Shown: positions 1 through 13,135 of the stretch, piece by piece
Layout: every line of letters starts with the position of its first letter
Numbering within the stretch: the first letter of the stretch is position 1
Origin: a virus
Lineage: Duplodnaviria > Heunggongvirae > Uroviricota > Caudoviricetes
Reading direction: 5' to 3' (one strand)
Length of the DNA stretch: 34,596 nucleotides
Virus record (IMG/VR): IMGVR_UViG_2541047860_000003
Span: 1 to 34,596 of that record
Position numbers and translations under genes: made by a program
Notes under the pieces: generated by a model
The model's database searches: none
What the model was told of the DNA's origin: nothing
What the model saw: the letters and a program-made list of their open reading frames with translations, nothing else

Positions 1-1254
1 ATGCTGGAACAAATGGGCATTGCCGCGAAGCAAGCCTCGTATAAATTAGCGCAACTCTCCAGCCGCGAAAAAAATCGCGTGCTGGAAAAAATCGCCGATG
101 AACTGGAAGCACAAAGCGAAATCATCCTCAACGCTAACGCCCAGGATGTTGCTGACGCGCGAGCCAATGGCCTTAGCGAAGCGATGCTTGACCGTCTGGC
201 ACTGACGCCCGCACGGCTGAAAGGCATTGCCGACGATGTACGTCAGGTGTGCAACCTCGCCGATCCGGTGGGGCAGGTAATCGATGGCGGCGTACTGGAC
301 AGCGGCCTGCGTCTTGAGCGTCGTCGCGTACCGCTGGGGGTTATTGGCGTGATTTATGAAGCGCGCCCGAACGTGACGGTTGATGTCGCTTCGCTGTGCC
401 TGAAAACCGGTAATGCGGTGATCCTGCGCGGTGGCAAAGAAACGTGTCGCACTAACGCTGCAACGGTGGCGGTGATTCAGGACGCCCTGAAATCCTGCGG
501 CTTACCGGCGGGTGCCGTGCAGGCGATTGATAATCCTGACCGTGCGCTGGTCAGTGAAATGCTGCGTATGGATAAATACATCGACATGCTGATCCCGCGT
601 GGTGGCGCTGGTTTGCATAAACTGTGCCGTGAACAGTCGACAATCCCGGTGATCACAGGTGGTATAGGCGTATGCCATATTTACGTTGATGAAAGTGTAG
701 AGATCGCTGAAGCATTAAAAGTGATCGTCAACGCGAAAACTCAGCGTCCGAGCACATGTAATACGGTTGAAACGTTGCTGGTGAATAAAAACATCGCCGA
801 TAGCTTCCTGCCCGCATTAAGCAAACAAATGGCGGAAAGCGGCGTGACATTACACGCAGATGCAGCTGCACTGGCGCAGTTGCAGGCAGGCCCTGCGAAG
901 GTGGTTGCTGTTAAAGCCGAAGAGTATGACGATGAGTTTCTGTCATTAGATTTGAACGTCAAAATCGTCAGCGATCTTGACGATGCCATCGCCCATATTC
1001 GTGAACACGGCACACAACACTCCGATGCGATCCTGACCCGCGATATGCGCAACGCCCAGCGTTTTGTTAACGAAGTGGATTCGTCCGCTGTTTACGTTAA
1101 CGCCTCTACGCGTTTTACCGACGGCGGCCAGTTTGGTCTGGGTGCGGAAGTGGCGGTAAGCACACAAAAACTCCACGCGCGTGGCCCAATGGGGCTGGAA
1201 GCACTGACCACTTACAAGTGGATCGGCATTGGTGATTACACCATTCGTGCGTAA
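1..1254 (+). CDS. proA: gamma-glutamyl phosphate reductase (complete, 417 aa)
   Basis: Full ORF starting at the first base; translation [30 protein letters not shown]... matches the enterobacterial ProA sequence and length as I recall it; sits directly upstream of tRNA-Thr as in E. coli. Confidence 0.95.
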
Positions 1255-1368: not shown

Positions 1369-1444
1369 GCCGATATAGCTCAGTTGGTAGAGCAGCGCAT
1401 TCGTAATGCGAAGGTCGTAGGTTCGACTCCTATTATCGGCACCA
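1369..1444 (+). tRNA. thrW: tRNA-Thr (anticodon CGU)
   Basis: 76-nt GCCGATATAGCTCAGTTGGTAGAGCAGCGCATTCGTAATGCG...GGTTCGACTCCTATTATCGGCACCA with D-loop, CGT anticodon loop, T-loop GGTTCGA and 3' CCA; a known prophage attachment locus next to proA. Confidence 0.9.
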
Positions 1445-1458
1445 TTAAAATCAATAAG

Positions 1459-2622
1459 TTACACATCATTAGTACCTTCCTTATTTTTTGACTGGGACAA
1501 ATTTGGGACCGATGGGTTCAGGATCGAGTCTATTTGCCGTGCGTGTTCGGTAAGGTGATTAGGTGCAAGGTGAGCATATCGACGAACCATTTCGATAGAC
1601 TCCCAGCCTCCCATTTCCTGTAACACTGACAACGGGACTCCGGCTTGAACCAGCCAACTTGCCCAGGTGTGTCTCAAGTCGTGAAATCTGAAATCATCAA
1701 TACCAGCCCGTCTCAGCGCCGCTTTCCAGGCTGTGTTTGCGTCATACCGCATCTTCCTTACTGTTGGCGCTTTCGTTCCGTCTGGTTTGGTACAGCTTTC
1801 CTTGTACACAAATACCCAACGGTGATGATTCCCGATTTGTTTTTTCAATACGCGACATGCAGTATCATTCAGCGCAACGCCAATTGCGCGGTTTGATTTA
1901 CTCTCTTCCGGGTTTATCCATGCCACCCGGCGCTGCATATCTATTTGTTGCCATTCAAGGTTGATGATGTTCGAGCGTCTTAAGCCTGTTGCCAGTGCAA
2001 ATTCAACAACAGACTTTAATGGCTCCGGACATTCATCAATCAGCCTTTGTGCTTCATGGGGCTCCAGCCAGCGGATCCGTTTATTCTTTGGTTGAGGCAC
2101 TTTAATAATTGGTGCCTTATCCAGCATTTTCCATTCACGCTCTGCGGCTCTTAGTAGGGCCTTTATAAATGAAAGATGCGTAGCCTTCGTTGCAACGGAC
2201 GCTGGTTTTGGCGTGTATTCTGGAACAGGTTTCCCTTTTTTTCTGCATGCTTCTGCCCTGAGTTTCCAGTTTTCCTCATGACGCCGGTTCGTCATTTTCT
2301 GCATTGCTGAATAAATTTTTGATTCAGTAATGTCTCTTAGTTGCATTCCTGCGAAATGTTGAAGCCAGAATCCGATCCGGCTTTTGTCATCGTCCAGTGA
2401 TTTTTTATGTGCTTTCTCTTCAAGCCACCTGACACACGCTTCCTCGAACGTTATATCAGGTATTTCACCAAGTTTGCTGACCCGCCATGCTTCAGCCTTT
2501 AGCTTGTCATGGAGTTCTGTCGCCTGCCTTTTGTCCTTTGTTCCAAGAGACTGTTTAAATCTTTTACCGTTCGGCAATGTGAAACTGGCGTACCATATTT
2601 CACCTCTGCGGAAGAGTGACAT
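1459..2622 (-). CDS. int: Tyrosine-type phage integrase
   Basis: 387-aa ORF 15 bp downstream of the tRNA; C-terminal catalytic region ...[42 protein letters not shown] fits the R..H-x-x-R..Y tyrosine recombinase signature. Confidence 0.85.
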
Positions 2623-4170: not shown

Positions 4171-4995
4171 TCAGGCGGTGAAAGTACCAATAAAGGTTTC
4201 TACTTTGCTGTCCTTGAATTTCTCAACAAGCAGATCACGAAATTCGTTAGCCATTTCTTCCTGCACCGCCTCCAGCTGAATAATGCGCAGAACCAGTACA
4301 GGACGATCGCCAGTGATAATACTGAGGCGTAATTTAAACGGACGTTCTTTCAGACCTTCAAACGGAACGCATTTAAATTCAAATGCCACTGGCATAATGT
4401 CTTTGGTCTTCGCTTCGACAGACTCCATCAGGGAGCGTTTGCCGCTGAAGTCATTATCTTCAAAATCAGCGGTCTGGTTTGCTTCAATCGTGATTTTACG
4501 GACAGCCGCAGCCGCTTTTGTTGCCTGAATAGCGTCACCATTAGCATCAAAGCCCACAAGATAGTCGGCCCAGTCTTCAATCCATTCTGCTAGTGACTTC
4601 TGGGAGTTACGCTCGCCGTTAACAGACAACAGAGCAGAGAACGGTGCTGTCTTTTTCAGTTTGAGTGTGGCGGTGTTATCTGCGTGACCTGGTTCATCAA
4701 TAGTACCTAGGTTAAGCACACTGACGGCACGCATATTATCAGCATCGATAAAGCAGCGGGTGCCTTCATCTGCAAGATCTTTAGAATAACGGGTAAAATC
4801 ATCGATGCTGGCAGTGGAAAGCGCACCACGGAAACGGAAGCGATTTAAATTAAATTTTTCCAGATCATGAATGCGGAAATTCTCAGGCAATGCCACAGCA
4901 TCGGCACCAATCTTACTGATAATTTCATTAACACCCTGAGCAGAAATAAGGGCATGGATTTGATTAATTGCGGTTGCGTCTAAGTTCTGAGACAT
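4171..4995 (-). CDS. YfdQ-like (DUF2303-type) prophage protein
   Basis: 274-aa ORF; size and position match YfdQ of CPS-53-type prophages by recollection; no catalytic motif recognised. Confidence 0.55.
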
Positions 4996-5060
4996 AATAA
5001 GTCCTCACTATATAAAGATATTCAGTGATGAGATAAATAATCAGTTAATTAAAAACGATA

Positions 5061-5423
5061 TTAACGACCTGCTGCGCGGAGTTTTCCGTCAGGTTCACCG
5101 GCAAGAGTCAGCAACTGTCCCTGGTCTTCCTGCAGAATAGTCAGGCGACCACCGCGATTGACATACATCGGCGTTTCGGTGGTGTCTTCTTCGGAAATTT
5201 TCCCGCGGTTAGTCGGGCGAACATATGAGAGTTTGTGTTTGATTTTCACTCGGTTCTCATCAAACGGTTCGATTTCTAGGTTGAGCGAGACCTTACCTTT
5301 GGTTTTCGTGTTCATCACACCGGAAGCGACTTCACTGAGAACTGCGCCGATTTTGGTTTCAAATACGCCGCCGTCCAGCTCCCCGATAAATGCCTGCACA
5401 TCAGTACTGCGTTCGCTAGCCAT
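5061..5423 (-). CDS. YfdP-like small prophage protein
   Basis: Start assigned to internal ATG at 5423 preceded by SD GAGGAG with 7-nt spacer; the longer 226-aa reading extends into a GC-rich hairpin region and has no RBS. Confidence 0.5.
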   Translation of the reverse strand: MASERSTDVQAFIGELDGGVFETKIGAVLSEVASGVMNTKTKGKVSLNLEIEPFDENRVKIKHKLSYVRPTNRGKISEEDTTETPMYVNRGGRLTILQEDQGQLLTLAGEPDGKLRAAGR

Positions 5424-5891
5424 TTTGCTGCTCCTCATCATATCGACCCTGCAAGGTCGGTTAGTTTCTCCACAAAACAGAGAAGAACACCTGCGGTGAC
5501 TGCCGCCCGGATGGATTGGGTTATGAGCCCGTCGTCCGGTGATGCTCTTCTCTGTTTTGTAAAAAGGACGGTACCAGCCGGAAGCAAGGGTACAAGCTGG
5601 TACCGCCAAGACTACACACAGCATAAAGTTGTGGTGCCGGGTGCCTCCCGGTGCCTGGCGAAGGTTGCACACCAGGCGGGTGGGTATCCACAGAAGGTCG
5701 ACTGTCAGCCTCAACCTTAACCCGCGTGCGCTGAGCCGCATTCACCACAACGCTAAGGATTCTCTCTGGTTGAAAATACTTAGCTGTTATGTGCCTGCTT
5801 TTAGCCACATCAGGCGAGGTGGACCTAGTTATTCCCCAACAACAAGGATTCGGTTAATCTGGTTATCCCCAACAACGCAAAAGGAAAAGAA

Positions 5892-6326
5892 ATGTCCGGT
5901 AATATCTATACGCTGTACAAATCCCACTGTGAAAATGTTGGAAAGTATCGGGGCATTGAAATCAGTGGGGTAGTGTCATCAGTCGAAATAAGCAAAGTTG
6001 AATCAAGGGCAACATTACTTACTCTTTTGGACCTTGTCTTACATGAGCACCGGAAGAAATTCGGCACTCCCTATAATCAGTTGAATGGGAAAAAGGCTCT
6101 GGTTCACCTTATTCTGATGAAGCATCACTGGATGCCAAAACAGATTAATGAGATGAAATTTGATGAACTTCTTCTTTCAATTCAGGATGAACTCACACTT
6201 GATAAAATAAGCGTAACCGCCCAGAAATTTTTAGATTATCGAGACTGGAGATCACAAATTCATCACTTTGATGATTTTGACGAAAATGAATGGGATCCTA
6301 ATTTGTCTGCACAATATCTAAAGTAA
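5892..6326 (+). CDS. Hypothetical 144-aa protein (AT-rich cargo gene in immunity region)
   Basis: ATG at 5892 with AAGGA SD; visibly AT-richer than the flanking phage genes; convergent with and overlapping the 68-aa minus-strand gene; no recognisable motif. Confidence 0.5.
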   Translation: MSGNIYTLYKSHCENVGKYRGIEISGVVSSVEISKVESRATLLTLLDLVLHEHRKKFGTPYNQLNGKKALVHLILMKHHWMPKQINEMKFDELLLSIQDELTLDKISVTAQKFLDYRDWRSQIHHFDDFDENEWDPNLSAQYLK

Positions 6327-6504
6327 CATCCTGTGATAAAACCGTGATTTCCTGATCCAGTTTTTTTAAGGAGTCTATTGTTTCCTGTCGATAAGACAGC
6401 ACTTCACGAAGCTGGTTTATAGCTGCCAGCTTCTTTGTCATCCACTCATAAATTTCCTCATCTGTGTAGCCAGGCGCGACGATTTTGGGTTCTGTTTTGT
6501 GCAT
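6298..6504 (-). CDS. Hypothetical 68-aa protein, first gene downstream of predicted PL
   Basis: ATG at 6504 preceded by GAGGAG with 7-nt spacer; predicted coiled-coil-like, not Arg-rich, so not an obvious N homolog. Confidence 0.45.
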   Translation of the reverse strand: MHKTEPKIVAPGYTDEEIYEWMTKKLAAINQLREVLSYRQETIDSLKKLDQEITVLSQDVTLDIVQTN

Positions 6505-6549
6505 TTCACATCTCCTCAAGTTATCAGTTACTTGTTGATGGGGACCAGA

Positions 6550-6561
6550 TTGTTAAAGAGC
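6550..6561 (-). promoter_or_regulatory. boxA-like element (GCTCTTTAACAA) on the leftward early transcript
   Basis: Minus-strand GCTCTTTAACAA matches 11 of 12 positions of the E. coli rrn boxA (TGCTCTTTAACAA) as recalled, 3 nt after a hairpin, between predicted PL and the first leftward gene. Confidence 0.4.
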
Positions 6562-6564
6562 TAA

Positions 6565-6586
6565 GCGTCCTGTAGGGCGCTTTTTT
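6565..6586 (+). terminator. Plus-strand hairpin plus T6 run (putative terminator for the 144-aa gene)
   Basis: GCGTCCTGTAGGGCGC followed by TTTTTT; on the opposite strand the same hairpin immediately precedes an rrn-like boxA. Confidence 0.4.
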
Positions 6587-6754
6587 GTTGCTAACGAATC
6601 ATCCTGGACTTCATATGCCCCAGGCGGCTACTTCGTGGGCGTCCTGCCTGTTCGTTTTTGACATTTACTGACTGCTTACGACACATGCACCGTGTTGCAA
6701 CCAGATTTTGTTGTAATCCTGTAGTTGGTCTGGAACAAAAGATAAAATTAAATT

Positions 6755-6796
6755 GTGAGATATGCAAGTGGTATTTGCGTGATATGCAAGTTGATA
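6755..6796 (-). promoter_or_regulatory. Putative OL/PL operator-promoter region
   Basis: Contains TTGCGTGATA, the same 10-mer present in the cI-cro intergenic region, plus direct repeat ATATGCAAGT twice; lies just beyond the cI terminator. Confidence 0.4.
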
Positions 6797-6800
6797 GGTA

Positions 6801-6823
6801 ATAAAAAGCCACCTTTCGGTGGC
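6801..6823 (-). terminator. Intrinsic terminator downstream of cI
   Basis: Minus-strand hairpin GCCACCGAAAGGTGGC followed by TTTTTAT, about 20 bp after the cI stop. Confidence 0.5.
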
Positions 6824-6842
6824 CGATGGAAGGATATTGAGG

Positions 6843-7535
6843 TTAATTATGTCTCTTAAGGGTTTGAGACTGACTGATTAAGACCTTTCCAAAGACCATG
6901 AATCGGTGTTCGTTTTCGCTAGTAATTCCCCATTCACGGTAAATCTGGTTATCAGAAATCACCAGCAGTTTGTCAGGAATCATTTGAAGTCTTTTAACGT
7001 ATATTTTGTCATCAAAACCAAAGACATATATACCATCACCATCAAACTGATTGATGCTGACATCAACGAAGATGAGATCTCCTGGCTCAATGGTTGGACA
7101 CATACTGTCCCCACGAACGTTGATAACTTTGATGTGATTGGCTGGTCGTCCGCCGAACATTGATACAGCATTATCAGTTCTGTATTCGATGGCATGAATC
7201 ACATCAATGACATCACCGCCCTGGATAAGGCCATTTCCCGCACTGGCACTGATATCCAGCATTTCAATACGGAACACATCCTTCACCTGCGCAACATCCT
7301 CATTATTACTGTTTTTATATACAGTATTACTTTTGTGGGCAGAGGTAAAGAGATCAGCAATATCAACACCTAAGCTCTTGGCAATATTACTCAGTGTTTG
7401 TTCGGTAAATTGTTTTTGCTTACCCGTTTCTAAGCGCGAGATGTTCGCCGCATCTACTCCTATTGCTTCAGCGAGATCGGCGATTTTCATGTTCTTCGCT
7501 TGGCGAAGTTGTCTGACTCGGTTTCCTATGTTCAT
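6843..7535 (-). CDS. cI: CI-type phage repressor (HTH + S24 LexA-like peptidase)
   Basis: N-terminal HTH (QAKNMKIADLAEAIGVDAANISRLETGK), Ala-Gly site (SASAGNG), S24 motifs (GDSM ... KR); divergent from cro across an operator-bearing intergenic region. Confidence 0.9.
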   Translation of the reverse strand: MNIGNRVRQLRQAKNMKIADLAEAIGVDAANISRLETGKQKQFTEQTLSNIAKSLGVDIADLFTSAHKSNTVYKNSNNEDVAQVKDVFRIEMLDISASAGNGLIQGGDVIDVIHAIEYRTDNAVSMFGGRPANHIKVINVRGDSMCPTIEPGDLIFVDVSINQFDGDGIYVFGFDDKIYVKRLQMIPDKLLVISDNQIYREWGITSENEHRFMVFGKVLISQSQTLKRHN

Positions 7536-7632
7536 GCGTTTATTACATTTCTTTATTGCGTGATAAGCAAATCAACTTGCGCAAAATAATTGCGTGAAAT
7601 AACATGCATAACGCGCAATATTTGGAGGGCGT
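7536..7632. promoter_or_regulatory. OR region with divergent PRM/PR promoters
   Basis: 97-bp cI-cro intergenic region carrying four related operator-like sites (TTGCGTGATA, TTGCGCAA, TTGCGTGAAAT, ACGCGCAAT). Confidence 0.6.
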
Positions 7633-7893
7633 ATGCAATCACCATTACGAAATGTGCGTAAGGCGCATGGTTTCACTTTGCAGCATGTTGCTGCGGGTGT
7701 TCAAGTCAATCCAGCGACGTTGAGTCGTATTGAGAGGCTGGAGCAGATTCCATCTATCGAGCTTGCAGAACGTTTAGCCAATTTTTTTAAGGGTGAAGTC
7801 AGCGAAATGCAGATTCTTTATCCGGCACGTTTTCAATCTAGCCAAAACCAGAATGGGTTTAAACCACAGGAACAGGAGGTGAACCGTGGGTAA
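7633..7893 (+). CDS. cro: Cro-like HTH regulator
   Basis: 86-aa ORF with HTH (TLQHVAAGVQVNPATLSRIE), GGAGG SD, divergent from cI. Confidence 0.75.
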   Translation: MQSPLRNVRKAHGFTLQHVAAGVQVNPATLSRIERLEQIPSIELAERLANFFKGEVSEMQILYPARFQSSQNQNGFKPQEQEVNRG

Positions 7894-8437
7894 GCATCAC
7901 TGGAAAGTAGAAAAACAGCCTGAGTGGTACGTGAAAGCTGTCAGAAAAACTATCGCAGCGTTGCCGGGGGGGTACGCTGAAGCTGCTGACTGGCTGGATG
8001 TAACAGAGCACGCATTATTTAACCGCCTTCGTGCCGATGGCGATCAGATTTTCCCGCTGGGATGGGCAATGATTTTGCAACGTGCTGGTGGAACTCACTT
8101 CATTGCTGACGCTGTGGCGCAGTCTGCAAATGGCGTCTTTGTGTCTCTTCCTGATGTCGAGGATGTGGACAACGCCGATATCAACCAACGCCTGCTGGAA
8201 GTCATTGAACAGATCGGCAGTTATTCAAAACAGATTCGTTCAGCAATTGAAGACGGTGTAGTGGAACCGCATGAGAAGACAGCAATTAACGATGAGCTGT
8301 ACCTCTCAATTTCGAAGCTGCAGGAGCATGCAGCTCTGGTCTACAAAATCTTTTGCGTTTCAGAAAGTAGTGACGCCCGCGAGTGTGCAGCTCCGGGCGC
8401 CGTGGCGTGTCGTGACTGTGGAGAAACTAACGCATGA
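7886..8437 (+). CDS. CII-like lysogeny regulator (phage 186 CII/CP76-type, by position and size)
   Basis: 183-aa ORF with GTG start after AGGAGG SD, immediately after cro; family assignment from memory only. Confidence 0.45.
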
Positions 8438-8792: not shown

Positions 8793-9723
8793 ATTAACCG
8801 GCTATGTATGGGATGGTTGCGCTGCATCAGGCATGAAATTATCCAGCGTGGCAATTATGGCCCGCCTGGCTGATTTCAGTAATGACGAAGGTGTGTGCTG
8901 GCCATCAATTGAAACCATTGCCCGCCAGATTGGCGCGGGAATGAGTACCGTCAGAACGGCTATCGCACGGCTGGAAGCAGAAGGCTGGTTAACGCGTAAG
9001 GCGCGTCGCCAGGGTAACCGCAATGCGTCGAATGTTTATCAGCTTAACGTTGCGAAGCTTCAGGCAGCGGCATTTTCTCAACTGTCAGATTCTGACCCGT
9101 CAAAATCTGACGCATCAAAATCTGACCCGTCAAAATTTGATGCGTCGAAATCTGGCAAAAAAGCGGGTTTTCACCCGTCAGAATCTGGCGGGGATCCGTC
9201 AGTAAAATCAAAACATGATCCGTCAGATAAAAAACCTTCTCGTCCGGACGCTTCGCAACCGGACACGCAGACGGCTGAACAGGAGTTTTTAACTCGCCAT
9301 CCTGATGCGGTTGTATTCAGCCCTAAAAAGCGCCAGTGGGGAACGCAGGATGATTTGACCTGCGCACAGTGGCTCTGGAAAAAAATCATCGCCCTGTACG
9401 AGCAGGCCGCCGAATGTGACGGCGAGGTGGTTCGTCCCAAAGAACCGAACTGGACAGCCTGGGCAAACGAAATTCGCCTGATGTGTGTGCAGGATGGTCG
9501 TACTCATAAACAAATCTGCGAGATGTACAGCCGCGTCAGTCGCGATCCGTTCTGGTGCCGTAACGTGCTCAGCCCGTCGAAGCTGCGGGAAAAATGGGAT
9601 GAGCTTTCCCTGCGCTTATCGCCGTCCGTCAGCACGTACACCGAAAAACGCGAAGACCCGTACTTCAAAGCCAGTTACGACAACGTGGACTACAGCCAGA
9701 TCCCGGCAGGATTCAGGGGGTGA
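8782..9723 (+). CDS. Replication initiator, lambda O-like (HTH N-domain, repeat linker)
   Basis: 313-aa ORF; N-terminal winged-helix region (GMSTVRTAIARLEAEGWLTRKAR); internal tandem 15-bp repeats encoding SDPSK/SDASK as in iteron-bearing O-type genes. Confidence 0.7.
   Translation: MSTKLTGYVWDGCAASGMKLSSVAIMARLADFSNDEGVCWPSIETIARQIGAGMSTVRTAIARLEAEGWLTRKARRQGNRNASNVYQLNVAKLQAAAFSQLSDSDPSKSDASKSDPSKFDASKSGKKAGFHPSESGGDPSVKSKHDPSDKKPSRPDASQPDTQTAEQEFLTRHPDAVVFSPKKRQWGTQDDLTCAQWLWKKIIALYEQAAECDGEVVRPKEPNWTAWANEIRLMCVQDGRTHKQICEMYSRVSRDPFWCRNVLSPSKLREKWDELSLRLSPSVSTYTEKREDPYFKASYDNVDYSQIPAGFRG
9091..9150. repeat. Four tandem 15-bp iterons inside the O-like gene (putative phage ori)
   Basis: TCTGACCCGTCAAAA / TCTGACGCATCAAAA / TCTGACCCGTCAAAA / TTTGATGCGTCGAAA in tandem, followed by further CCGTCAG copies and an A-rich stretch to about 9240. 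Confidence 0.5.
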
Positions 9724-12740: not shown

Positions 12741-12757
12741 TCTTGTGGAGAAAGTTG

Positions 12758-13135
12758 ATGCGTGATATTCAAATGGTTCTGGATCGTTGGGGAGCATGGG
12801 CGGCGAGTGATAGTTCAGGAGTAGACTATTCTCCTATAGCTGCTGGGTTTAAAGGGCTTCTTCCCTATACAAGCAAAACACGTCAGGCATGTTCAGATAG
12901 TGATGCATTAATTATTGAAAGTTGTCTTGCTCGTCTAAGGCAAAAAAGGCCGGACGAACATTCGCTTCTTGTTGCCCATTATCTATACGGTATCTCTAAA
13001 AGAAAGCTCGCCAAGGCTCGTAAAAAGGATGAGAAACTAATACGCATTGAGATACAGATGGCTGAGGGGTTTATTGATGGCTGCCTATCGATGTTGGAAA
13101 TTAGTCTAGAGATGGACCCCGAAGTTAAAGATTGA
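12758..13135 (+). CDS. Late-gene antiterminator Q (QuuD / phage 21-type)
   Basis: MRDIQMVLDRWGAWAASD...IAAGFKGLLPY matches the QuuD-type Q N-terminus as recalled; ATG at 12758 after GGAG SD. Confidence 0.75.
   Translation: MRDIQMVLDRWGAWAASDSSGVDYSPIAAGFKGLLPYTSKTRQACSDSDALIIESCLARLRQKRPDEHSLLVAHYLYGISKRKLAKARKKDEKLIRIEIQMAEGFIDGCLSMLEISLEMDPEVKD

Follow-up and report, generated by a model that had tools for sequence, protein, structure and literature searches.

The DNA considered here, a stretch of 34,596 nucleotides (IMG/VR virus record IMGVR_UViG_2541047860_000003, positions 1 to 34,596; hereafter the window), is an SfII/SfIV/e14-like prophage of the Caudoviricetes, and on the transcript predicted to leave its early leftward promoter (PL) it carries a consensus boxA, an element known from the leaders of the ribosomal RNA (rrn) operons of Escherichia coli. 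Judged from this sequence and those of its relatives, the boxA is real, conserved and probably functional, in a new setting. The reading towards which we lean, with moderate confidence, is that it would serve as a functional N-independent loading site for the host proteins NusB and NusE, shielding PL transcription from the termination factor Rho. Just upstream, at the 5' end of the same transcript, lies a structured leader RNA of 68 nt, and this leader is the more novel object of the two.

A consensus boxA between PL and the first leftward gene

A direct read of the window gives GCTCTTTAACAA on the minus strand at 6561..6550, with T as the next base at 6549; going 5' to 3' on this strand, an A6 run (6586..6581) is followed by GCGCCCTACAGGACGC (6580..6565), by TTA (6564..6562) and then by the boxA itself. 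The leader of E. coli K-12 rrnH, likewise read directly, has ACTGCTCTTTAACAATTT, with which the 13-mer TGCTCTTTAACAA agrees at 12 of 13 positions, the sole mismatch being the first base (A for T); the next base T agrees too, which brings the match to 13 of 14 positions. The comparison with rrn leaders suggested in an earlier interpretation of this DNA (the sequence-only reading) thus leaves a single difference over 14 nt, and the resemblance described there is real, while its count of 11 of 12 was too low. The 11-mer GCTCTTTAACA at 6561..6551 shows zero mismatches to GYTCTTTAANA, the gamma-proteobacterial boxA consensus built from rrn and suhB (Baniulyte et al. 2017, PMC5725501). In the window this exact 12-mer has a single occurrence, where about 0.004 would be expected on both strands of 34.6 kb (our own arithmetic). 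Looser matches, with up to two mismatches, are not enriched (five seen versus 2.75 expected), so that only the site at 6561..6550 stands out. The observation of a boxA is therefore real, and the site is placed on the predicted PL transcript by operator repeats and synteny: as had been proposed, it sits between predicted PL and the first leftward gene, with the repeats at 6753..6791 on one side and the start codon ATG 6504 on the other.

The adjoining hairpin as a terminator of the opposite strand

Immediately 5' of boxA lies a hairpin, and the two are referred to here as the cassette. The sequence-only reading had given this hairpin two roles, as a boxB on the PL transcript, in the rrn order boxB-boxA, and as part of an intrinsic terminator on the plus strand; the second role holds and the first does not. 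On the plus strand the stem contains a G.U pair, folds with -11.0 kcal/mol, is followed by TTTTTTGTTG and is picked up by a terminator scan. On the PL (minus) strand this pair becomes a C.A mismatch, and the folding energy of -6.5 kcal/mol is not superior to that of shuffled sequence (z = -0.41). In PhiR29_1 and PhiR49_1 the identical element lies some 25 nt beyond the stop of a convergent gene of 242 amino acids (aa).

The cassette variants found in relatives agree with this assignment. The hairpin loop differs freely among them, stem position 4 is in nearly all of them G.U on the plus strand and C.A on the PL strand, and an A-run of at least five is kept by all hairpin-type variants; of three informative variants, two pair on the plus strand only (L110 and L226; L numbers are our locus handles) and one shows the reverse (L040). 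Moreover, relatives in Xenorhabdus and Kluyvera have boxA without any hairpin. A boxB identity is therefore ruled out by the better plus-strand folding, the free variation of the loop and the absence of the hairpin from some relatives. What stands of the proposed rrn order is the geometry alone, which is comparable to that of rrnH: the hairpin ends 1–4 nt upstream of boxA in both, the boxB hairpin of rrnH ending 4 nt before GCUC. In the window, however, it is the weaker strand that shows this geometry, the hairpin is dispensable in relatives, and a GU-rich boxC was not found 3' of boxA, where the sequence is AUCUGGUCCCCAUCAACAAG and rrnH has CAAUCUGUGUGGGCAC. The rrnH-like arrangement appears to be a by-product of the back-to-back terminator.

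Conservation of boxA behind a shared leader

Relatives were collected by using as an anchor the stretch 6591..6658, which encodes the leader RNA and is common to phages with differing immunity regions and downstream genes; an exact 22-mer from the leader core was found in at least 120 viral contigs and at 92 loci of species-representative genomes. Downstream of the leader, a consensus boxA on the sense strand is present at 25 of 132 viral or phage loci among the matches listed (in a search out to 1.5 kb, with every site inside 240 nt) and at 17 of 92 species-genome loci (up to 400 nt downstream), whereas no antisense consensus boxA was found downstream of the leader in either set, so that the ratio of sense to antisense sites is 42:0. 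Counted on both strands, 25 of the 30 consensus matches in the 2.6 Mb of viral matches listed are leader-linked, as are 17 of the 25 in 1.4 Mb of the species genomes.

Among 13 distinct cassette variants, the 11-mer changes solely at the N position of the consensus, its G and C positions being invariant too, while three different bases precede it and beyond ATC(T/A)G the variants have unrelated sequences. Some 15 nt beyond the hairpin still belong to the conserved block, on a side for which a plus-strand terminator has no use. Thus boxA is constant across at least 13 variants in at least seven genera while its flanks recombine, and degraded copies were not seen among the cassette loci. It occurs in three contexts: with the hairpin in Escherichia, Kosakonia, Enterobacter, Atlantibacter, Buttiauxella, Raoultella and Scandinavium; naked in Xenorhabdus (L151, L191, L199) and Kluyvera (L181); and followed by a lambda-type boxB hairpin in Xenorhabdus (X. 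bakwenae L198, and L202). Since the same leader and boxA recur in all three, the position is one at which boxA is known to be used.

The surroundings of these sites also differ from those of leaders that lack boxA. In PhiR29_1, PhiR49_1 and several other variants the cassette is followed by a convergent gene rather than by a nearby sense open reading frame (ORF), and substantial antisense ORF cover in the next 1.2 kb was found at 12 of 12 distinct boxA-bearing loci with enough sequence versus 46 of 81 loci without boxA, a contrast with a hypergeometric tail of about 0.002 (calculated by hand) that ignores kinship among related lineages and uses a crude ORF measure.

The leader and the cassette together are present in 1086 of 5426 complete E. 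coli genomes, and no annotated features lie on this stretch of about 126 bp among the matches listed. An isolated match to 33 nt of the cassette in strain ANT is merely a copy truncated by IS1. Two assemblies labelled as non-Enterobacterales, Chryseobacterium sp. 18061 (L163) and Pseudomonas lundensis I31 (L174), have the exact 22-nt core, one of them with the full boxA cassette, and are probably contaminated or mislabelled contigs.

N protein and nut sites

The absence of a recognisable N protein, already remarked upon in the sequence-only reading, is borne out by scans of the early ORFs with Pfam and PHROGs and by a scan for arginine-rich motifs, none of which revealed an N protein; the paper on the SfIV genome likewise describes SfII, SfV and SfIV as lacking N, cII and cIII (PMC3851460). 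The sequence-only reading had named a conventional N together with a separate nut site as evidence that would tell against it, and neither was found in the window. No further boxA with zero or one mismatch that might represent a second site or nutR is present in the window, a lambda-type boxB with a GNRA-like pentaloop is absent from the 45 nt 3' of boxA at every cassette locus, and a search over 2.6 kb of the cassette loci gave no boxB-like hairpin and no arginine-rich ORF. Compared with nutL of lambda and P22, the window's site is alike in lying between PL and the first leftward gene and in having a boxA of the P22 type; it differs in having no boxB 3' of boxA, no arginine-rich N-like ORF and no nutR.

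The same boxB search does succeed in Xenorhabdus, with GCGCU-GAAAA-AGCGC in L198 and a version of 4 bp in L202, where leader, boxA and this lambda-type hairpin stand together. In L198 (X. bakwenae, 4230..5881) the leader module is followed by boxA GCTCTTTAACA, 4 nt and boxB GCGCUGAAAAAGCGC, and further on by an insertion with an insertion-sequence (IS)-type transposase and a 109-aa N-like ORF (NARKRRHERRKEL; MHNFHGYDNARKRRHERRKEL...) with an arginine-rich motif resembling that of P22 N. The mEpimmI phages, described as ‘Nus-dependent non-lambdoid’, were considered as relatives and set aside as a different group with an N-like Gp17 and nut sites; in mEp460_4F5 the leader module is present and boxA is absent.

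A structured leader RNA at the start of PL transcripts

Four parts make up the leader RNA: the outer helix P1, formed by AACGAA/UUCGUU; a core of near-invariant sequence, AGGCAGGACGCCCACGAAGUAGCyGCC; a hairpin B of 5 bp, whose loop is GGCRUAYGAAnn; and a conserved GGAUGA. About 30 of its bases are near-invariant and unpaired. Both helices are supported by compensatory changes, P1 being swapped as a whole (AACGAA/UUCGUU, AGCGAA/UUCGCU, GUCAUC/GAUGAC, CCACC/GGUGG) and hairpin B occurring as CCUGG/CCAGG, CCGAC/GUCGG and CUACC/GGUAG. In a covariance-model alignment of 77 distinct sequences, 94.2% of cells pair and both-side changes are seen in 10 of 11 pairs; none of 500 shuffles reaches the observed values, and when the 3' partner is slid by 1–3 columns at most 46% of cells pair. 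The search pattern itself accounts for part of the invariance of the 22-nt core, though BLAST matches in other genera show the same core. As regards the strand of the module, counts of G.U versus A.C pairs are 15 versus 26, with 14 of the 26 at one loop-closing pair, and the strand was taken from gene order, because SfV and ZF40 have solely leftward genes there. In free folding, the 3' half of boxA pairs with the 3' strand of P1; this pairing was rejected, the partner bases being unconserved in variants with another P1.

In the related phages examined, the module is always located just after cI and PL, and where the promoter is clear (SfIV, e14, SPN3UB, AH07, YeP1, ZF40) it lies about 8–20 nt past the predicted PL start. 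Its carriers include SfV, SfII, SfIV, ST64B, ZF40, phiNP, YeP1 and AH07, it is found in E. coli K-12 in the ymfK-ymfJ spacer of e14, around 1,202,110-1,202,180 of NC_000913, and its overall range spans more than 25 genera of Enterobacterales. Searched against Rfam, both at gathering thresholds and at E<=10, the stretch 6540..6665 gave nothing, and a full-text literature search for the core sequence found no paper. The module is present in a single copy in the window (model R1) and one multi-copy case was seen among relatives: a viral contig (L099) with two modules on the minus strand, at 981..1035 and 1649..1716, about 670 nt apart and scoring 46.7 and 87.2 bits. In Salmonella phage SPN3UB (L136, 3556..3735) and many IMG/VR loci, which belong to the GAUGAC and GGUGGA classes of P1, a second conserved domain, UUAACGCGCAGCAGGU...AACGUUCCGCYRGCCNGGCGAUAAGGCA, comes after the module and contains a covarying hairpin; next stands a conserved unannotated small ORF (MIDFARKP...). 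The P1 class of the window has neither.

The put sites of phage HK022 are the obvious known counterpart. As in HK022, a structured RNA of about 70 nt stands at the very start of the PL transcript, in phages that lack N in most cases seen. However, put comprises two side-by-side stem-loops and comes as a left and right pair, whereas the module is a closing helix with an internal hairpin and is present once; moreover, the shared CAGGAUGA is a loop in put and a stem plus linker in the module. The comparison with HK022 putL that had been suggested earlier thus revealed no kinship, and membership in the put family is rejected, since model R1 misses the HK022 put regions and the sequences (putL/putR, NC_002166) are unrelated by eye. 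Nor is the module simply a substitute for N, as it stands in Xenorhabdus beside boxA-boxB and, in L198, an N-like gene. The leader RNA, which the sequence-only reading had overlooked, is among these elements the likeliest to matter for the PL transcript. It is a possibility, though an unlikely one, that it constitutes a new class of cis-acting RNA that modifies the transcription complex, as an analogue of put or a dock for a factor, and that by its coupling to boxA in about one fifth of cases it forms an N-free antitermination site made of RNA plus Nus factors.

Organization of the early-left region

The features on which the argument relies are collected in Table 1.

Table 1. Coordinates of the cassette, the leader RNA and surrounding features in the window.
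Feature	Position	Strand	Basis or remark
yfdP, first gene of the yfdP-T block, downstream of the terminator	5061..5423	minus	
STnc100-like small RNA (sRNA) region	5558..5781	minus	Rfam RF02076 full-length, 43.4 bits (gathering score 47), E = 3e-07
Strong intrinsic-terminator-like hairpin + CUUUUU	5561..5607	minus	-23 kcal/mol, z = -4.25, 0/200 shuffles as stable
Convergent 144-aa gene, ECs1072 family, phrog_5286	5892..6326	plus	PL transcript is antisense to the gene
C-rich, G-poor stretch of untranslated PL RNA	5935..6012	minus	C 31%, G 12%, sliding 78-nt composition
First leftward ORF, 68 aa, phrog_1744	6298..6504	minus	Full-length PHROGs match; no N protein
boxA, GCTCTTTAACAA(T)	6549..6561	minus	Unique exact match in window; rrnH identity apart from first base; GYTCTTTAANA fit
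Stem-loop of plus-strand intrinsic terminator, AAGCGTCCTGTAGGGCGCTT	6563..6582	plus	Folding energies; terminator scan
T6 tract of plus-strand terminator (A6 run on PL strand)	6581..6586	plus	Sequence; terminator scan
68-nt structured leader RNA, 5' end of PL transcripts	6591..6658	minus	Covariance model R1, 90.9 bits
Left operator (OL) repeats and predicted PL region	6753..6791	minus	17-nt repeats TTGTGAGATATGCAAGT, TTGCGTGATATGCAAGT; third copy at the right operator (OR)
cI	6843..7535	minus	
cro	7633..7893		
CII(CP76)-type regulator	7886..8437		
Q, complete	12743..13135		PF06530

The OL repeats lie just downstream of the cI terminator (6807-6824), and the third copy of this repeat family (D1) is at 7556-7572 within OR repeats that span 7556..7600; the PL transcript is predicted to start at about 6735-6740. 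Its first ORF encodes an acidic protein without an arginine-rich motif, assigned to the YdfC family in related phage records, and begins 46 nt downstream of the boxA 11-mer if ATG 6504 is used, or 31 nt downstream with the alternative TTG 6519. Beyond this ORF, RNA in the PL direction runs for about 870 nt without translation, to yfdP. The C-rich stretch within this RNA resembles a Rho loading site and may, on that resemblance, be linked to Rho. The terminator-like region that had been noticed earlier between the first leftward gene and the yfdP-T block proves to contain the -23 kcal/mol hairpin on the PL strand, which coincides with the 3' end of the sRNA-like region.

Several further observations concern the same region. 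A weak DicF match overlaps the STnc100-like region, an arrangement reminiscent of ydfABC-dicF in the Qin prophage. Upstream of yfdP, after the sRNA-like terminator, stands a very stable and nearly perfect long hairpin (5462..5562, minus strand; -47.8 kcal/mol, z = -6.5) with the arms ACAAAACAGAGAAGA... and ...UCUUCUCUGUUUUGU. The bases just 3' of boxA (6532..6551 minus, AATCTGGTCCCCATCAACAA) recur inverted upstream of the 144-aa gene (AATCTGGTTATCCCCAACAA), within 5820..5880 of the plus strand, where a direct repeat, TTATTCCCCAACAACAAGG, is found nearby; these repeats may be recombination scars left by insertion or inversion of the segment with the 144-aa and 68-aa genes. Elsewhere, about four tandem 15-nt repeats (TCTGACCCGTCAAAA) at 9091..9154, within the O-like replication gene, are probably origin iterons, an Rfam match of this stretch to mir-5880 being spurious. 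Close E. coli relatives of the prophage adjoin dsdC-torI, and a tRNA-Thr (CGT) gene near the left end of the window (1369..1444) could be the integration site of this copy.

How boxA may act

In the reading that we favour, boxA as single-stranded RNA would load the host NusB-NusE (S10) pair onto polymerase just past PL, and NusA, NusG and SuhB would join to form a Nus complex without the involvement of boxB or N; as with the boxA of rrn operons and CRISPR arrays, the elongating polymerase would be shielded from Rho. The protection would span the roughly 870 nt of untranslated PL RNA, that is, the part antisense to the 144-aa gene, the C-rich stretch, the sRNA-like region and the terminator of the latter, and it would be needed because translation does not extend over this distance beyond the 68-aa ORF. 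The hairpin and T6 would act for the other strand, keeping convergent transcription from reaching the leader RNA, PL and cI. The cassette would then be a two-way device, with a terminator for rightward transcription and, for leftward transcription, a boxA with which to cross the same inserted opposite-strand genes. That Nus factors bind, that the transcript is sensitive to Rho and in which direction boxA works are inferences.

Precedents for such a mode differ from the window in instructive ways. The E. coli rrn leader has an identical boxA core (GCTCTTTAACAAT), requires no phage protein and precedes RNA that is largely untranslated; the phage site, in contrast, lacks boxC, has A instead of U as its first base and a hairpin optimised for the opposite strand, and its transcript is an early operon containing a small ORF. 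Closer in layout is the boxA ahead of CRISPR arrays, which protects long untranslated RNA from Rho (Stringer et al. 2020, PMC7665894): a lone boxA precedes long untranslated RNA in both, with the difference that the phage RNA, known here from sequence alone, is antisense to a convergent gene and contains an sRNA-like region. Function of boxA outside rrn has also been demonstrated at suhB (Baniulyte et al. 2017, PMC5725501), where a consensus boxA in the 5' untranslated region is less than 50 nt from the start codon, as in the window, but represses, and the phage cassette is conserved even where no ORF follows boxA. Supplementary Data 1 of the same study places GCTCTTTAACA 31 bp ahead of the hypothetical genes ECUMN_0866 (E. 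coli UMN026) and EFER_0580 (E. fergusonii) (PMC5725501). Exactly this distance separates the window's boxA from TTG 6519, and the site was therefore probably caught by that screen but never discussed.

A number of points weigh against the favoured reading. Antitermination by Nus factors only, as known from the rrn literature, counters Rho but does not efficiently counter intrinsic terminators, so that boxA alone would not carry polymerase past the -23 kcal/mol terminator at 5561..5607. As this terminator is not accounted for, expression of yfdP-T and xis from PL would not be delivered by boxA alone; either PL transcripts normally end at 5561..5607, giving the sRNA-like 3' end, or another agent acts. 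Of the N-independent, Nus-type antitermination advanced in the sequence-only reading, the consensus boxA on a predicted PL transcript without N is retained, while the boxB part is not. PL itself is deduced from operators and position, its promoter hexamers being weak and uncalled by a promoter scan. The predicted unpaired probability of boxA is no more than about 0.5–0.9, depending on context, its mean ranging from 0.4 to 0.9 with the variant and with enforcement of P1. About 80% of leaders have no boxA, many of them also facing antisense ORFs (46 of 81), which means that boxA is not generally required. The cassette variants are closely related, and their invariance may in part reflect recent spread rather than selection. 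Finally, boxA near a ribosome-binding site represses rather than activates at suhB (Baniulyte et al. 2017, PMC5725501).

This last precedent suggests a different outcome for the same factors, in which the Nus complex would tether the leader and block translation of the 68-aa ORF, Rho would terminate, and early-left expression would be dampened. The spacing is suitable, since boxA is 46 nt from ATG 6504 and 31 nt from the TTG, within the range of Baniulyte et al., the suhB boxA being 29 nt upstream, and the GCTCTTTAACA of their Supplementary Data stands at the same distance of 31 bp, possibly at the same locus. Yet the cassette is kept where a convergent gene and not a sense ORF comes next, as in PhiR29_1, PhiR49_1 and other variants, and a gene-specific translational role cannot explain such conservation; we regard repression of this kind as improbable. 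That boxA has no function at all, as a relic of nutL from an N-encoding ancestor that hitchhikes with the terminator hairpin, would fit with the relatives that carry, behind the same leader, boxA and a lambda-type boxB in the equivalent place, together with an N-like gene in one case, and with the use of the same GCTCTTTAACA in P22-type nut sites (cI/cII entries in the Supplementary Data of Baniulyte et al.). A functionless 11-mer should decay, however, and boxA is instead invariant over at least 13 variants and seven or more genera with recombining flanks, occurs in three unrelated sequence contexts and has no degraded copies among the cassette loci, so that a relic seems quite improbable. 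The comparative data speak still more plainly against coincidence, in which the bases would merely flank a bidirectional terminator upstream or form its U-rich far side. The PL-strand hairpin is indeed followed by the moderately U-rich UUAGCUCUUU, but about 0.004 occurrences are expected per window, the strand bias in relatives is 42:0, the G and C positions are as invariant as the others, and Xenorhabdus and Kluyvera have boxA without the hairpin; coincidence is accordingly very hard to credit.

A further alternative enlarges the element rather than replacing it: structured leader RNA and boxA would together form a nut- or put-like signal that resists both intrinsic terminators and Rho, the leader binding polymerase directly or through a phage or host factor and boxA adding Nus factors. 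It draws on the module's place at the extreme 5' end of PL transcripts, constant among the relatives examined, on its strong covariation and roughly 30 near-invariant unpaired bases, on the recurrence of boxA just downstream, on the agreement with HK022 putL in position and size, and on the circumstance that SfII, SfV and SfIV are devoid of N, yet a strong intrinsic terminator lies in the PL operon of the window. Against it, the module is unrelated to put by sequence and by covariance model, it has one copy and no partner on the side of the rightward promoter (PR), about 80% of modules are without boxA, and in Xenorhabdus it coexists with boxA-boxB, plus an N-like gene in L198. Sense-strand terminators downstream of the module are not enriched either (26 of 83 loci), although the scan is crude, overlooking large-loop terminators such as the one in the window, and supports neither side. 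Taken together, a composite signal appears rather unlikely.

Implications for phage early transcription

Control by boxA and Nus factors outside rrn operons and N-dependent phages has been recognised just recently, with suhB and the CRISPR arrays as its examples, and if the favoured reading is correct, a lone boxA in the leader of a prophage without N would extend it to phage early transcription. It would also show how temperate phages transcribe through opposite-strand accessory genes that have been inserted into their early-left operons. The combination of a terminator on one strand with an anti-Rho signal on the other is a compact design, which could serve in synthetic constructs. About one complete E. 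coli genome in five carries the prophage family with leader and cassette, and the leader RNA, present in e14 of K-12 and thus a ready experimental target, may explain how these phages do without N.

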